A DNA stretch of 64,000 nt, taken from NCBI GenBank assembly GCA_010405405.1, contig MU004239.1, forward strand, positions 1,178,001 through 1,242,000, in the 5' to 3' direction. This document shows positions 36,328 through 49,174 of this stretch, piece after piece. The notes below the pieces were generated by a model. It saw only the letters and a program-made list of their open reading frames with translations, was not told the origin of the DNA and ran no database searches. The position numbers and the translations under genes are program-made. Positions within the stretch are counted from its first letter, which is position 1, and every line of letters begins with the position of its first letter. Source of the DNA: Microthyrium microscopicum. Lineage: Eukaryota.

Positions 36328-39300
36328 CCTGATGCTAGAGCTTTTTGTTCTGAAATACACAAGCGAGAGAAGTTGAAAGAATGAAGAGTAAACTGTTTGA
36401 GAGAAGGGTGAAGCCGACTTACTCTCTGCAGCCAAAAAGCTTTATATATCCCATTTTACAACCCGCCATAAGGGATGGAACATAACACTCAAGTAACCAA
36501 GCTTTGAATACTCCGCCAAACCGACTGGACGCCTCTGCTGTACGCCATGGTCCAGGTGTGTTATTGTTGGCGCTCTCGAACTCTCCATACTACCATCACC
36601 GCGTTCTCGCTGAGTGTAACTCCTAAGTCAATGATTCTACCTCCTATGGACTGTTAGGTAACGTCGCTGAAGCCTCCCAGCCACAGGTCCAATTACAAAC
36701 TCGATCCTAGCACGCTACTGTCGTGAGGCTTTACAATTTCGTGTTTTTGAGAGGTTTCCTGCTCGGCGAACGGCGTGTGGAAGTTAAATGATAACGCCTA
36801 GTCCGGCGCCTATATATATGCCAAGTCAAGTCAGTTACCAGGTTGATAGCTGTCCAATAATAAATCCCATCGCTTTAGAGAGAGCCCAATCTAGCCAACG
36901 ATACGACAAAGTGGTAAAGAAATGGCCCCCAGATCTCGAACCAAATTAGCCACTTTGTTGGGGGCCAAGCCACCCCCTCAAAAAGTGAAAATACCTGGAT
37001 CTTGATCACTACCAAATTCAAAAGCAAGGATGAACTGTATTGGATTTGCCGAGTAGGCCGATATCTTTTGAAGCGACGAAGATAGGCCCAAGGCTCCATT
37101 GCCTCAACCATTGACAATTGTGCAACCTCATTATCTGCTTATTTGTACCATCGTTGTTGACATATAAGGAGGTGCCTATCAGGCTATCACAGGGTTCTTT
37201 GAAGAAAACTTTAATCTCATGGCATATGCTTCTATGCTGCCAACTTTTGAATGCGATGGTATGTGAGACTTAAAGGCATCCTTCCTTTAATAGAGTTGAT
37301 AGGAGCAATCCTCAGTGATGGGGGCGGGCCATTGCCTTTGTCACCCTATAGTCACTAAACATGAGTAATGATAGGGAAGTTTTTGTAAACCTACCTCCGA
37401 ATTTCATGATGAGACTCCTTTACTCTTCCTACTTCTTTAACATCAATGATAAGGTCGATACTTTAGTTCTCTTGAGTCTTGACTTGGTTGTTCCTTATTA
37501 TCCATGTCTTGGAAACCAAGAGACATCATGTTACTTTATTAGTAATTGTCCCAAGCACTTCAAAACATGCAAGATCGATTATGGCCCTACACAAGACTCG
37601 AGCATAGAAATAACTCGCCACGCTGTTCACGGAACCAGTATTTCCCCCTCAGGAAACGCAATGTTCACATAACTCTTATTTTCCGATCCTCAACATATCA
37701 TGTCCTGCATGAGATCGATGAATGAACAAAATATTTTAGGTGACTGATGGATTGGAGACAATTGAAGACCTGAAGAGAACGAGACTTTGTAAAGGGATCT
37801 GGCATTACCTACTTATATTTTATGTTATTTGGGGTCCAGAAACATTGCTCTTTATAGAACATGGAAGCACTGATCGTATTGAACGTTTAATCATGGATGG
37901 ACACAAACTCTGATCAGGACATATTAGCTTGTAGTCATCAAGTTTGCCATAGTCTTCGGCTACGAAGGCCCCTAGCCGTCAGGAAAGGTGCGAGTGCATA
38001 ACTACAGGCAAGAGAAAGCACTACTCACTTTTCTTCATCCGGATATAGCTTGTTATTTAGAACCCACAATTCTACCTATCGTTGGCGTGCACGAAGACCA
38101 AATAATGATCTGGAGGGTCACAAACCGGTGTATATCATTTGTCATTTGATTGCATATGGCTTTACTCAAGGCAGCGATATATTCCGGTGGATATGATGGT
38201 GATCATGCAACGTAGGCGAGCGGTTGATTAGGTTCTATGCATGGATGGCAGGGTAGAGCTATGGCAGAGAAGCAACATTGGATTGTTCATCAACAAATTG
38301 AGCTATTCGAAGCGAAAAGTGGACCAATCGGTTGGTAGAATATATGATATGCTCGTTTAATGTATGTAGGATCAGGTTCCATATCATCCAGTACACACTT
38401 TCAACAACGGTGGCATTTCTATTGCATGCCTGAACCCTCATCAAATGTGCTGGGAATACAAGCGTCTTTTCTGCGTAAGGTAGGATGAGACCTCAGGGGA
38501 CACCTTCCAAGATTGATAGAAATCTGCGCCGCTATTTGCTGACCGAGAGGTATGCAACCTTCAGATTAAGGTATAAAGTATCCGTTAAAAAATAGGCCTC
38601 GGTCCTAATGCCTTGCTTTCTGTGAGGTCTTCACTTCCTGCACCGTTGTCGAGTTCACGAAAACATTCGACGGGTCTCTCGACGGGTCTCTAGAGATAGC
38701 AATGTAATACCCTGAACAGGGAATGAGAGGAATTATTTTGAACCACAGAGCGGCACTACTATCTCAGATTCTGGTTCAGAAAGTTTGATCGTGAAGTGAC
38801 ATGTACTCAATTCAAAATTGGCGATCTCAGATCTGGACCCTGATTTCGTAAGGCCCTGTAAGGCTGAGGCTGAACGCACGGAGTCTAGCGGTACCACGTG
38901 GCAGATCACGCTAAGGCTCCAGCTTCGGAAGAGACAAGCCAATCAATACCTCGTATTTGTCTGCTAGTCTATAATCTTTGCTCGCCCAAAGAAGCTCGCT
39001 TGTTTATTGGTACCATTTGTTCCGCCTCTAGGAATTTTGTCTATACATGATTAGCTTAGAAGCTAGACGTAAAAGGATAAGGAGCTGCATGGGATGCTAC
39101 GAGCGCAAGCGGGGCGGTATTACTTATCGAATCTGAGTCAAGAAGGAAAAGAATTGAAATTTTAGATACCTTACTTCCTCATCCAAATTTTGTCGAGTTT
39201 CCCAGCCGTGCCAGCCTCTTGGGGCAGGTAGAGCTTGATCCGATCGATTCTTGGCAGAACAAGCAGCCAGCCACAATCATACATCGCGCATTAGCCATTG

Positions 39301-42389: not shown

Positions 42390-43170
42390 ATGCATCTCCA
42401 AAGCGTCGTAGTGGCCTTGTGCCTATCACTCACTGCTTCGGCACAAGCAGCCATGCCCGCTGGCATGGACATGTCACCCATGGCTGGCATGCCAATGATG
42501 CCAGGAATGACCGAAGCCGAAATCAAGAAAGAGAAGGCCATGAAGGGTGACAAGAAGAAGTGCGCCGAAATCCGCCGGCTCACTGCCTTCACCAAGCTTA
42601 TGAGCAACGCTACCCGACTAGACGCCTTCGAGACAAAGCACAAATTGACTGACGACCAAAGAGCGGAGCTCAAGGCCAAAGGTGCCAACGCTACCGCCAT
42701 GCTCCAAAAGCTTGAGAGCAACTCAACACTTGCCACCGAATGCGCCATGGTCAATGCTGACCGAAAGATGAAGCAAGAGTGCAAGGCTATGAAGGGTCTT
42801 ACCAAGTTCACCAAATTCGTCAACAACGCTACCGCTTTGGACATGTTCGCCAAGAAGAAGAACTTGACTGAGGCACAAGTACAAAAGATCAAGGACCGTG
42901 GAATGAACGCTACCAAGTTCCTCAACAAGCTGGAGAGCAACAAGACCCTCGTTGATGACTGCATGAAGATGATGAAGTCCAAGGGCGGCAAGAACGGCAG
43001 TAAGCATAACCAAATATTTGAGACCGAACGAGTATCTAACCGGCTTTCTAGCAAATGGTGGAAAAGCTGCTACTTCCAGCGCAGTCAGCATGCAAACATC
43101 TTTCAGTCTGTTATCAAATGGTGCATTCGCACTCTTCTTGGGCAGCCTCGGAGCCATGTTGATGCTATAG
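42390..43170 (+). CDS. Secreted, probably GPI-anchored protein with Met-rich N-terminus and two 73-aa repeats
   Basis: Signal peptide MHLQSVVVALCLSLTASA; intron 43000-43051 yields the tail ATSSAVSMQTSFSLLSNGAFALFLGSLGAMLML* (GPI signal-like). Confidence 0.8.
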
Positions 43171-44521
43171 ATAGGGAAAGATGTGGTGACGGATAGATGG
43201 ATACCCAGAGCAGCCAATAAACGAATTACTGGATTGGATTGGAGGGCTTGAAAGACTGTTTGTCGATATCATTCGGGCGCGAGATGTATTTTCTTATGGC
43301 AAAATTTATATGTTTCGTACTTACATAGCGCTGTTCTCTCTTTCAATTTCAAACTTTACTACTATCCATAACTTCTCAGATCTATCTCTTTGTTCAAATA
43401 ATTCAGATATAATTTTGAAGATTTGGAAAAAGGTGCGGTTAGATCAAATCTTGTCACGCCAACATCTCTACCCTATTGTTTTCGAACATTCGCTTACGAG
43501 TCCTTTGCAAACACGCATAAGAAACATTCCGCTGGACATCCCCGATTTGGATTCTCAGATCTTGTTTGACGCTGACGTGTCTCGTAAGTGGTTTCGGCTA
43601 TCTATAATAGCATCAAGTTTCCAAGCTTTCGACGCCACCAGACAGAAAGTTATGAAACCTTGAACACGCTATAGAATGCACTATAAATTTTTGTAGCTAA
43701 CTAAATCGCTTGTATTTAGTATCTGACAGAGAAAGGACCGTCCATATCCGGCCGGGGTAGCAGAACCTGTTCTTCTTTGCTGTCACTGGTCATTTTAGAC
43801 TAGGAAGGTTATCTGATGTTGTTTTCTCCGGTTATATTATTGATGAGATCCTATCGATCTATCACCAAGATTTGCGTTCCATTATGTCACAGGAATAAAG
43901 TATGGTGTAGCCAGTTGTACTTTTCTGAGCCGGACTTTTACTTTCCCAGCAACAGTTTTCGATAAACCCTTCCAGGAATTGAGGTTTAACACCTGGCAGT
44001 GTAGTATACCAGCAAGACAGTGCAAACAAACACTACCGTTGTGGGATTTTGCGCTTGAAAATCATTCATATAACACTGTTTGCAGCACTTTTTAGTGCAC
44101 TGTCATCGAACCTCAATGAAGAGATGTAGTAAGAATAGAATTTGCGATAGCGCGGTCTACAAAAATCAATATCCTAGTACTTAGCAAGATGGTTTTGGTC
44201 AGAGCTTAATGGGATGTCATTTAAGTAAAAAGCCCTTCATCAATGTTGTCGCTGCCAAAGACAGTCTGTGTTATAGACATCTTGAGTACCTATGTAACTG
44301 AAAGGGCTCTATTGCCTATATTTTTTCAATATACCGACCTGCCGATATTAAGTGTACCTTCAAAGAGAGATATGTACAGTTTTTAAATTAATCATCCGCG
44401 TAATGACAAGTAACTCATCCCAAGATGTAGCGCTTTCCTGAGAAAAGCTTCAGCACAACCGTGACCTGCAAGATTTCCCGTCTAGTTAGCAAGCAACTGA
44501 TACTTGCAGTTCACGTTCATT

Positions 44522-46000
44522 ATGAGGACCACAGTCGCAGCAACTCTCCTGTTGGCAGTCGCAGATACTTTGGCACTCACCACATTCCCGGCCAATGAAG
44601 CAAAAAATGTCAATCCAGACACACATCTAGTGCTGAATTTCGCCTCTCCGCCCAAGATCGGTAAATCAGGGATCATCACAGTCTACGATGCGGCGACAAA
44701 GGCGGTGGTTGATACTCTTGATTTGAGTATTCCGGTTTCGCCAGCTCCCAATGGTCGAGATCCTACTAATAAGGGCACAACAACACAGCCAAAGGCAGCG
44801 GATCCAAATGACAAGACGCCATATCAGATTAATATGGTTGGTGGGTATGACTTTCACTTCTTTCCCATCGTAGTGCATGGAAACAATGCGATTGTCAATT
44901 TGCATAACAACAAGCTCAAGTATGGAAAGCAATATATCGTCAAGATGGAGCCTAGCGTTCTGAGCGCCGATGGTTTCTCTGGATTTACAACCGATTCGGC
45001 CTGGACGTTTACCACAAAAGCAGCAGCACCACTGCAATCTTCCACCCGTGTTGTCGTCGCGGAAGACGGTTCTGGAGACTTTAGTACTGTTCAGGGAGCT
45101 ATCGACTGGGCTCCTGCAAAGCCTACGTCCAAGCTTACCATATTCATCAAGAACGGAAATTATGAAGAAATCGTCTTTATGTCAAAGAAATCCAACATCA
45201 TCATCCGCGGTGAGGACCGAAATAAAACCATTGTTGGCTACCCAAACAACAGCGCCTTCAACCCTAGCAAAGGTGGTCCATCACGTCGTGTAGCCTTCAC
45301 CATTTCAAACAGCAATGACATCCAGCTAAGCACATTCACCATCAATAACTACTTCATTGGTCAGGCCGAAGCAATATTGATCCGCGGTGATCGCATTCTC
45401 TTGGAGCGCATGACAATGCATGGCTCCGGCGACGCCTTCACCACTTACGGCACCATTTACGTCGCCGATAGTCTCCTCACCGGTGATGGTGACACGGTTT
45501 TAGGATATGGAGCGGTATACTGGCTACGCTCAACAATCGAGTCGGTTGGCCCATTCACCTGGACACGTACACCAGCTGGTCAACATGGTAACGTGTTCGT
45601 CAACTGCTCACTCGTGGGTGTAAGTAAGCCGTTGCCATGGACAGTCACTGCTGCGAGACCAAACGGGGAGAAGACCAAAGCAGTGTTCGCACGTCTACCG
45701 CAGAACGGCAAGAGTGTCAATGGGTCAAATTTCCCACATGCTGAAATGGTACTCATAAACACCAAGACGACTGGTGTGCCAGCAGAAGGATGGGGTCCAA
45801 TCCAGGGTGATGGATTCGACAAGAGTGACGTGAAGCTGTGGGAGTTCAACACCATGGATATGAGCGGGAAACCAGTCGATATGAGCAAGAGAAATCCTGT
45901 GGCGAAACAGTTGAGTATGGCAAAGGATGCGAAATTGATAGAGGACTACCAGAAACCCGACTTTGTGCTGAAGGGATGGAACCCAGTCATCGAGAAGTAG
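44522..46000 (+). CDS. Secreted pectin methylesterase-like protein (CE8) with N-terminal bacterial Ig-like (SbsA/Big_5-like) domain
   Basis: Signal peptide; FPANEAKNVNPDTHLVLNF...LKYGKQYIVKM...WTFTTK Ig-like module; then VVAEDGSGDFSTVQGAID, IFIKNGNYEE, IIIRGEDR, GQAEA, GDGDTVLG, FARLP, LWEFNT beta-helix motifs; intronless. Confidence 0.9.
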   Translation: MRTTVAATLLLAVADTLALTTFPANEAKNVNPDTHLVLNFASPPKIGKSGIITVYDAATKAVVDTLDLSIPVSPAPNGRDPTNKGTTTQPKAADPNDKTPYQINMVGGYDFHFFPIVVHGNNAIVNLHNNKLKYGKQYIVKMEPSVLSADGFSGFTTDSAWTFTTKAAAPLQSSTRVVVAEDGSGDFSTVQGAIDWAPAKPTSKLTIFIKNGNYEEIVFMSKKSNIIIRGEDRNKTIVGYPNNSAFNPSKGGPSRRVAFTISNSNDIQLSTFTINNYFIGQAEAILIRGDRILLERMTMHGSGDAFTTYGTIYVADSLLTGDGDTVLGYGAVYWLRSTIESVGPFTWTRTPAGQHGNVFVNCSLVGVSKPLPWTVTAARPNGEKTKAVFARLPQNGKSVNGSNFPHAEMVLINTKTTGVPAEGWGPIQGDGFDKSDVKLWEFNTMDMSGKPVDMSKRNPVAKQLSMAKDAKLIEDYQKPDFVLKGWNPVIEK

Positions 46001-46665
46001 AAAGAGTTCTAGGACCCTAATTACAGTTTCTTCTATTCCATTTCGGCCACTAGCTGGATCCGTTCAAAATGTAATTCGATAAGCCCCTCAGCTTTGTGTT
46101 GTTGTATCATGATAAGGCTGACCACAAGGCTGAGGCTCGGATACAGCTTCCCGAAGCATGACTCCATTGAAAGCTCCATCCAGGGTGGGGTGGGTTTGGC
46201 GGGGCACGCATCAGATCAGTCACAGATCTATCAGCTAAGTTAGTAAATGGTTTAAACGATTACGGGATTACGAGCGTATTTTGGGTAAATCTTGGTGTGA
46301 TGGTGACATTTCTGCAAGAGTGATGCTTGCTTGAAGCGGTCGAGAAATCACGACTGGGAGGGGCCGATTGCGGCCCCGCGCTGTCAACAAAGTTGGGTCT
46401 TTAGACAATTCCAAATTCTTTTTGGAGGTAGAATCCGAGCTTGCGGGCAGGCGGGATTATTCCATTAGAAACCTGAAAAGCTCAGCTGGTTAAAGACGGA
46501 CTTCGAAGCTCTCCTTCTCCATACTAGAGTAATATACAACAGCTCCAAACTCACCCCCTCCATACACCTTTGCCAGCTCTACAACTCCATACTCTTGACT
46601 CGCATCTGCAAACTCAAGGCTTTCTTCCAAATATTCTGCTTAGACTCCTTTTCTAACTACCTATA

Positions 46666-47321
46666 ATGGCACCACTCAAGGCCGGCGACAAGTTCCCATC
46701 GGATGTCAAGTTCGAGTATGTTCAAGCTGCTTAGCCATGATTGTCCTTACTGACCTTTGTAGCTGGGTTCCAATCACTGATAGCGACCCTACCAACTGCG
46801 GACGCCCACAGGAATACGATGCCAGCAAGCAGTGGGCAGGAAAGAAAGTGGTGCTCGTCAGCGTCCCAGGTATGCCATCGCGTTTTTAAGAATCATAAAA
46901 GAACATTTCTAACGTCTGCGCTCCTAGGTGCTTTCACTCCTGGTTGCCAGGCTTTCCATCTGCCACCTTACATCTCCAACCGAGCCAAGCTCTCCGAGAA
47001 GGGCGTAGACATCGTTGCTTTCATCGCCTATAATGACGCGTGGGTCATGAATGCATGGGGCAAGGTCAACAAGGTCACCAACGACGATGTGGTGAGTACA
47101 GGCATATCTGCTTGAAGAAAACAAGTACCTGACTGGAAGTTTAGCTGTTTTTGGGTGACACCAAGTCCAAGTTCGCTGAAAACCACGCTTGGACTATGGG
47201 TGAGCGCAATGGCCGCTGGGCTATCGTGATTGAGAAGGATGGAAGCATCTCATATGCTGAAAAGGAGCCAGGCCAAGGAGTGACAGTCTCCGGTGCCGAA
47301 GCTGTTCTCTCCAAAATCTAA
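46666..47321 (+). CDS. Peroxiredoxin, Prx5/Pmp20/Asp f3 type
   Basis: MAPLKAGDKFP, KKVVLVSVP|GAFTPGCQAFHLP, YNDAWVMNAWG, RNGRWAIVIE; three introns; ends in SKI (PTS1-like variant). Confidence 0.92.
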
Positions 47322-48520: not shown

Positions 48521-49174
48521 ATGAGATACTCATTCGCAACACTCAGCATCGTCTCGCTGGCTGCCGCCCATGGCATGATCACGAGTCCAGCAGCGCGCCA
48601 ACCTGGTCCAGCTATGGCAGCTGCCTGCGGAGCACCCGCCGTCGCCGCCGCCATGTCTGACCCGACCAATCCTCTCGAAGACATTGACGTGAGTGCCGCT
48701 ACACCACAGTGCAAACTCGATCTCTGCCGCGGAGCCACATTCGCAGACAACAAAGACCGCATGCAGACATTCACCGCCGGCCAAGTAATCCCCATGAAAG
48801 CCGTCCTACCTATTCCCCACGAAGGACCCATGAACGTCTCCATCATCGACACGGCGACGAACAAGGCAGTCGCACCACCGTTGATCAGCTTCAAGAGCTA
48901 TGCGGACGAGAACTTGGCGACGCTACCAGCAAACAACACAGCGTTTAGCGTGACGATGCCAGCGTTGAAGGCGGGTATGTGTGCGCAGGCAGGACAGTGC
49001 ACAATGCAGTGGTTCTGGGTAGGCACCAAGGCGATGCAGACATATGAGAGCTGTGTGGACTTTGTGATGGCGCCAGCTGCTGCAGCTGCTGCCCCTGCTC
49101 CTGCGGCATCACCATCGGTTATATTTGCTGCTCCACCAGCGCCCATTGTAGTGGCAAGAGGTTTTCGAGCTTAG
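48521..49174 (+). CDS. Lytic polysaccharide monooxygenase-like protein, CAZy AA16
   Basis: Signal peptide ends just before His1 (HGMITSPAARQPG); LCRGATFADN, second His in PIPHEGPMNVSIIDT, CTMQWFW, QTYESCVDF match the AA16 pattern. Confidence 0.88.
   Translation: MRYSFATLSIVSLAAAHGMITSPAARQPGPAMAAACGAPAVAAAMSDPTNPLEDIDVSAATPQCKLDLCRGATFADNKDRMQTFTAGQVIPMKAVLPIPHEGPMNVSIIDTATNKAVAPPLISFKSYADENLATLPANNTAFSVTMPALKAGMCAQAGQCTMQWFWVGTKAMQTYESCVDFVMAPAAAAAAPAPAASPSVIFAAPPAPIVVARGFRA

Follow-up and report, generated by a model that had tools for sequence, protein, structure and literature searches.

How did a fungus come to carry an intronless CE8 gene whose product is built like a bacterial protein, and what would that product act on? 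The question is raised by one locus in a 64,000-nucleotide (nt) stretch of Microthyrium microscopicum DNA (assembly GCA_010405405.1, contig MU004239.1, positions 1,178,001 to 1,242,000, forward strand), which is the whole sequence analysed here and is called the window. An earlier note on this DNA had described a secreted open reading frame (ORF) of about 490 amino acids (aa), with an immunoglobulin-like (Ig) module ahead of a CE8 beta-helix, and had proposed a transfer from bacteria into this fungus. Our analysis indicates that the gene is very likely of bacterial origin. We favour the reading that its product is a secreted carbohydrate esterase with two domains, from a bacterial CE8 subfamily that is so far uncharacterised; it is probably a pectin methylesterase whose preferences have changed.

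A two-domain CE8-type gene on a fungal contig

The architecture described in the earlier note was borne out. Because homologues cover 95-100% of the query and the RNA-type contigs have no internal joint, no intron is needed in the ORF, which is a single frame of 492 aa (Table 1). In it, FPANEAKNVNPDTHLVLNF was located at aa 22-40, GSGDA at 301-305, GDGDTVLG at 321-328 and FARLP at 389-393. The Pfam Pectinesterase family (PF01095) matched aa 177-341 with 58.4 bits (cut-off 27, E 6.6e-16), and Big_5 (PF13205) gave a marginal and partial match to aa 117-165 with 25.1 bits (cut-off 23.6, E 3e-5). Both domains are above cut-off, and the bacterial homologues are built alike. On rescanning for Big_5, three of four close relatives were above the cut-off and the Xylaria protein P0309 was below it; the Atlas value for a Big_5/SbsA-like domain was 0.90. 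The structure model of the protein (pLDDT 89, pTM 0.89) shows a right-handed parallel beta-helix of the pectin methylesterase (PME) type, and its best matches in Foldseek and VIA-align were all CE8. The NCBIfam models for the PemA equivalog (NF041896; 32.2 bits, cut-off 700) and the YbhC type (NF007822; 40.3 bits, cut-off 436) remained below threshold. The protein is predicted to be exported, and its gene is single copy in the genome (37.1 Mb, 58 contigs).

The gene sits on a 1.74-Mb fungal contig, physically linked to spliced fungal genes and covered by RNA-type contigs. In DNA run X4, one contig (44236-47447) holds the whole CE8 gene and the three-intron Redoxin gene downstream at a depth of 1009, compared with 894 upstream; the assembly may have been built from this very run, which counts against this line of evidence. 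Run X5 belongs to another study. Its contigs lack four GT..AG introns of the genes on either side, and they also span 44364-45072 and 45139-47014. They are uninformative on strand, level and transcript ends, and their RNA status rests on the four spliced joints. With a continuous DNA contig at even depth and spliced RNA contigs, the chimeric assembly that the earlier note had named as a possible refutation was not found. Bacterial contamination, a chimera, or vertical fungal descent with a transfer from fungus to bacterium would fit the missing intron and the bacterial architecture. We consider these explanations largely refuted and give them almost no weight, as the linkage just described, orthologues in many fungal genera, and the many bacterial lineages that diverge before the fungal clade, whichever of two rootings is used, all speak against them.

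Ancestry and spread

The same genome holds two other CE8 loci (C8 and C2), which are intron-split and carry QDT and LGRPW motifs, one of them also DFIFG, together with 13 GH28 matches and one pectate-lyase match. BLAST aligned the query with the genome's canonical CE8 over 37 aa only. From a 159-row alignment (107 fungal, 52 bacterial), 57 rows (30 fungal, 27 bacterial or unnamed non-fungal) and 472 columns were analysed with IQ-TREE. The fungi formed one clade (99/91), enclosed by nodes supported at 96/97, 100/99 and 100/99, where the remaining rows were bacterial or unnamed only. Support for the fungal clade was 97 under the C20 mixture model, and 0.954 and 0.987 in FastTree runs of 144 and 295 rows. 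When the genome's canonical CE8 was added, the fungal clade remained deep inside the bacteria. Nesting among canonical fungal CE8, which the earlier note had listed as a counter-indication, was not seen: union with them was rejected (p-AU 0.011), in a quick tree with one long-branched canonical sequence. Several sister rows are unnamed, and the three with DNA (L031, L039, L040) have bacterial neighbours; the trees single out no one donor lineage.

The first homologue search gave 1720 matches among 8000 candidates; the best 120 of these 1720 include Trichodelitschia, Eremomyces, Aulographum and Lomentospora. In GTDB, 23 loci were found in Opitutaceae, Hyphomonadaceae, Sphingomonadales, Brevundimonas, Pelomonas/Roseateles and others; the 16 compared were full-length and 47.6-60.7% identical to the query. 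The nearest named fungi form group A (Trichodelitschia, Eremomyces, Aulographum, Lomentospora, Coniosporium, Venturia inaequalis, V. nashicola and Tothia). A set of 42 metagenome loci revealed a second group, B, which has fungal neighbours (HET, DUF3176, Ctf8, and P450 and GH3 genes split across frames). Searching with a group B member returned 73 B-type clusters, and the group includes Xylaria, Nemania, Rosellinia, Ustulina, Phialemonium, Thozetella, Coniochaeta, Pseudogymnoascus, Xylogone, Scytalidium, Mollisia and Rhizodiscina, as well as nine Pleosporales genera. Named orthologues thus come from at least 28 genera, of which 16 belong to Dothideomycetes, 8 to Sordariomycetes and 4 to Leotiomycetes; the class was looked up for six genera. 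The nearest Atlas cluster has 84 members, 88% of them eukaryotic. Uninterrupted frames are also seen in the five long fungal copies from metagenomes that have DNA (L030, L046, L053, L054, L056). The gene has a G+C content at third codon positions (GC3) of 0.53; three neighbouring genes range from 0.46 to 0.70 and the 23 GTDB loci from 0.49 to 0.94.

The limited design of the canonical-CE8 test weighs against the bacterial origin, and two features of the trees weigh against a single bacterial entry: a fungal-clade support that dropped to 0.52 when all 159 rows were run in FastTree, and a short stem branch (0.04) under fungal monophyly. Both features would also be expected if two or more independent transfers from closely related unsampled donors only appeared monophyletic. 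So would the distribution of a PLPW loop (aa ~367-384, window about 45620-45675), which group A and the close bacteria retain and which is deleted in group B; it is present in 31/107 fungal and 42/52 bacterial rows, and its region is gapped in 76/107 fungal rows. We nevertheless regard several transfers as quite improbable, given the support for the fungal clade in IQ-TREE and under C20. Group B joins Lomentospora at 98/92, and a separate origin of B from the deeper bacteria that share the missing loop was rejected (p 3.8e-5).

Because orthologues occur in so many genera of three classes, the transfer was not recent or private to this fungus, and the fungal-like GC3 agrees. The bacterial origin proposed in the earlier note is well supported, the gene being nested in bacteria; entry into this particular fungus is not, as the recipient was an old ascomycete lineage. 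The earlier note had named orthologues that are widespread and follow the species tree as a refutation, and only the first half of this applies: the gene is widespread, but it is patchy and does not follow the species tree. Single clades were rejected for the Sordariomycetes (p 3.6e-5), the Dothideomycetes (p 4e-13) and the two Aulographales (p 4e-5), and within group B the signal was weaker (p 0.052, 0.043 and 0.0015). In one test the query was treated as a Dothideomycete, which is consistent with its nearest named relatives and with the orders put in Pleosporomycetidae in the available part of PMC7082219. The rejection of class monophyly implies either an early A/B duplication with heavy loss or later transfer between fungi, and both match the data. 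A group B copy was searched for in this genome and none was found, nor did any named species among those encountered have both copies.

We hypothesize that filamentous ascomycetes acquired the gene from a bacterium in a single, ancient event, and that saprobes, endophytes and plant pathogens scattered over three classes would have retained it whole and without introns. Transfer of bacterial genes into Pezizomycotina is already well known, so the surprise is limited.

Several copies have features of their own. A Cys at position 12-22 is found in 16/29 group A proteins (P0003, P0005-P0009, P0012, P0102, P0129 and others) and in 15/72 of group B. A lipobox-like motif occurs in 27/80 bacterial relatives, and several close ones have Cys at the same place; the Cys in group A is possibly the relic of a lipoprotein donor, and the query is without it. 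The database model of P0128 (Coniosporium uncinatum, 911 aa) joins CE8 to downstream sequence and is probably a gene-calling fusion, because P0129 has 499 aa. The metagenome fungal copy L068 has a frameshift at ~320, after its DWAPAN motif, from sequencing error or decay.

The active site and its possible substrate

In Dickeya numbering, Gln177, Phe202 and Trp269 are listed as subsite +1/-1 residues (PMC10530356, available text including Table 3), and the Asp/Asp/Arg triad is described as strictly conserved in the accessible parts of PMC10530356 and PMC12109409. Q281, G303, D304, D324 and L327 of the query were matched by HMMER alignments to 1XG2, 1GQ8, 5C1E and 3UW0, and R391 by multiple alignment to the genome's canonical CE8; all site equivalences come from sequence alignment. 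We take D324 to be the nucleophile, D304 the acid/base, R391 the positioning residue and Q281 the stabiliser of the oxyanion. The 159 rows, over which conservation was scored (Table 1), agree with the motif reading of the earlier note: both Asp and the Arg are kept, and the second Gln and the Trp are replaced. The LGRPW Trp (Trp269) is without counterpart, as the query reads FARLP, with RLP at the Arg, and the alignment is gapped there. Position 347, a Trp here, is Ala in canonical fungal CE8 and Gln in distant bacterial Ig + CE8 proteins.

Positions 303/327/347 read G/L/W in 193/195 close homologues, in keeping with a variant that the earlier note had ascribed to bacterial proteins. In 100 distant representatives they read Q/W/Q in 76 and G/L/W in 14, and the triad is kept in 98. 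The switch is not independent covariation, because it traces to one ancestral event. We infer that the aromatic platform may have moved by one rung, and the PLPW loop may shape the cleft. Because the protein is CE8 by fold and triad, yet failed the test for a canonical methyl-ester site, we would class it as a variant that is so far uncharacterised.

The copies P0346 (Xylaria digitata) and P0348 (Xylaria multiplex) have Val-Asn in place of Gly303-Asp304; they are the only ones losing D304 and are thus probably without the acid/base residue. In Rosellinia P0312, a Cys takes the place of Arg391.

Could the protein be catalytically dead, a pectin-binding or surface protein like YbhC? The lost second Gln and Trp and the weak YbhC-type match would suit such a role. 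The near-invariance of D304, D324, R391 and Q281, which extends to distant representatives for the triad, argues against it, and we consider it improbable. On the reading that we favour, the enzyme would use the CE8 route to hydrolyse galacturonic acid methyl esters in pectin. W347 would stand in for the missing Phe/Trp as the aromatic residue, and without the second Gln and the Trp the subsites would have other preferences, such as oligomers or decorated pectin. The Ig module would be an obligate structural partner or spacer, not a catalyst, and the enzyme would supplement, not substitute for, the two intron-split CE8 genes of the genome.

To this we add the bacterial gene neighbourhoods, for which 19 of the 23 GTDB loci were scanned (118 ORFs picked by a composition rule, with only part of the ORFs at four loci). 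Glycan-degrading neighbours were found at 8/19 loci in three lineages: GH43/GH127/GH106 at L007, L008 and L010, and GH2/GH95/GH43/apiosidase-like/GH115 at L017, L022 and L024. At L012:2710-5205 (-) and L020:1-2295 (+), a CE15-like glucuronoyl esterase domain is fused to a PL10 pectate lyase, near CE8 and TonB receptors. These neighbourhoods point to pectin, with homogalacturonan and rhamnogalacturonan II (RG-II) not separated.

A number of observations nevertheless weigh against a pectin methylesterase. The equivalents of Gln177, Phe202 and Trp269 are all replaced; the Pectinesterase profile is covered only at positions 2-167 of 298; and the query is only 16-25% identical to CE8 enzymes of solved structure. 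A literature search found no description of any member of the G/L/W subfamily. The fungal neighbours within the window form no pectin cluster, 11/19 bacterial loci are without a glycan-degrading neighbour, and the GH43/GH115/GH95 neighbours are equally compatible with xylan or arabinan.

An enzyme of the same origin might instead remove a methyl ester from RG-II, an acetyl group from pectin or an ester from glucuronoxylan, and act poorly on plain homogalacturonan. This is possible, if on balance doubtful. The concerted switch at 303/327/347 and the retention of the enzyme beside two other CE8 genes would favour another target. So would GH106, GH127, GH95, GH2, GH43 and the apiosidase-like family (L007, L008, L017, L022, L024), which we take to be families of RG-II loci. 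PL10-type pectate lyases need de-methylated homogalacturonan, and the PL10 fusion at two bacterial loci points the other way, as do the unaltered triad and first Gln and the heterogeneity of the neighbourhoods. The stronger proposal, that G/L/W marks a branch of CE8 whose ester specificity is new (e.g. for RG-II or acetylated pectin, not plain homogalacturonan) and which entered once from bacteria and then moved between fungal classes, is in our view unlikely. If the new specificity were true, Xylariaceae, Venturia and others would gain a pectin-unlocking activity that other fungi lack, hidden under the automatically assigned label 'pectinesterase'.

Counts of fungal CE8 genes are taken as one activity, but at least 28 genera have a copy that is bacterial-derived and two-domain, has a remodelled site and is only about 20% identical to any solved CE8. 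Carriers include decayers of wood and litter, endophytes, and the fungi that cause apple and pear scab. As the gene is intronless, easy to express and predicted to be secreted, the function of a CE8 that has lost the second Gln and the Trp is directly testable.

The surrounding locus and known CE8 systems

Table 1. Features of the CE8-type gene and its surroundings (window coordinates; counts are rows keeping the residue).
Feature	Position	Strand	Remarks
CE8-type ORF (P0001)	44522..46000	+	one open frame, ATG to TAG, 492 aa, no intron
Probable signal peptide, aa 1-18	44522..44575	+	inferred from hydrophobic N-terminus; helix 2-12 at low pLDDT in model
Big_5/SbsA-like all-beta Ig-like module, aa ~19-167	44576..45022	+	flexible insert at ~70-100
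CE8 parallel beta-helix, aa 173-492	45038..45997	+	
Q281 (= Dickeya Gln153), kept	45362..45364	+	107/107 fungal, 52/52 bacterial
G303 (for Gln177) and D304 (= Asp178)	45428..45433	+	D 105/107 fungal, 52/52 bacterial; G 105/107, 50/52
D324 (= Asp199) and L327 (for Phe202)	45491..45502	+	D 107/107 fungal, 52/52 bacterial; L 107/107, 50/52
W347, subfamily-specific, next rung	45560..45562	+	107/107 fungal, 50/52 bacterial
R391 (= Arg267), then LP not PW	45692..45700	+	R 106/107 fungal, 52/52 bacterial
Probable 5' untranslated region (UTR), upstream of ATG	44364..44521	+	covered by RNA-type contig (run X5 record 10)
Upstream intergenic spacer, ordinary	43170..44521		39.9% G+C
Upstream neighbour, secreted-looking	42390..43170 (end approximate)	+	52-nt intron; without Pfam match
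Downstream neighbour, Redoxin-family (peroxiredoxin-like)	46666..47321	+	three introns with GT..AG joints; Pfam Redoxin E 4e-10

The spacer that the earlier note had called AT-rich is indeed lower in G+C than the window (47.3%). Because the 1-kb bin 37001-38000 likewise has 41%, we regard it as ordinary intergenic DNA, which removes its value as evidence. The upstream neighbour is Lys/Met/Ala-rich with internal repeats, and its intron was confirmed by RNA contigs. One X5 contig, 45139-47014, starts in the CE8 ORF, crosses 660 nt of intergenic DNA and ends in the spliced Redoxin gene; it may reflect overlapping UTRs or read-through rather than a demonstrated single transcript. Further downstream, 48521-49174 (+) is a secreted-looking ORF of 217 aa with a weak LPMO_10 match (E 1.4e-5) and a His after the signal peptide.

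Bacterial transfers into Xylariales have been catalogued in a preprint (bioRxiv 10.1101/2021.06.01.446356). Its available part reports 86 of them at high confidence and with patchy spread, including three plant-cell-wall enzymes passed to diverse Xylariales; that part names no CAZy family, with 0 occurrences of 'CE8'. The CE8 gene described here is commonest in the genome set which that preprint covers, and Supplementary Table 5 of the preprint may already list this gene.

Among the closest known proteins are bacterial 'pectinesterase family proteins' (Big_5 + PF01095; L007-L029), which share length, architecture and the G/L/W signature with the query; they come from the lineages named above and from Sinobacteraceae/Steroidobacteraceae, and are annotated only automatically. 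A wider bacterial Ig + CE8 family, about 30-43% identical to the query, likewise has Big_5 before CE8 and is without the LGRPW Trp. In contrast to the query, it keeps the second Gln and a Trp at the Phe202 position, with the motifs S[FY]QDT, DVDF[MIL]WG and LARIP, often in large multidomain proteins with Ig repeats or pectate lyase; there was no named fungus among its matches listed. Compared with the solved CE8 enzymes (tomato 1XG2, carrot 1GQ8, Butyrivibrio Pme8A 8TNE, Dickeya PemA 1QJV/2NSP/2NTB, Aspergillus niger 5C1C/5C1E), to which it is only 19-25% identical, the query has an extra N-terminal Ig module, Gly for Gln177, Leu for Phe202 and the new Trp347, and is without Trp269. Canonical fungal CE8 (C8 and C2 of this genome, and the A. 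niger PME) have family and fold in common with it, and probably secretion too. They are intron-split proteins of about 320 aa (L002) with QDT/DFIFG/LGRPW motifs, whereas the query is two-domain and intronless.
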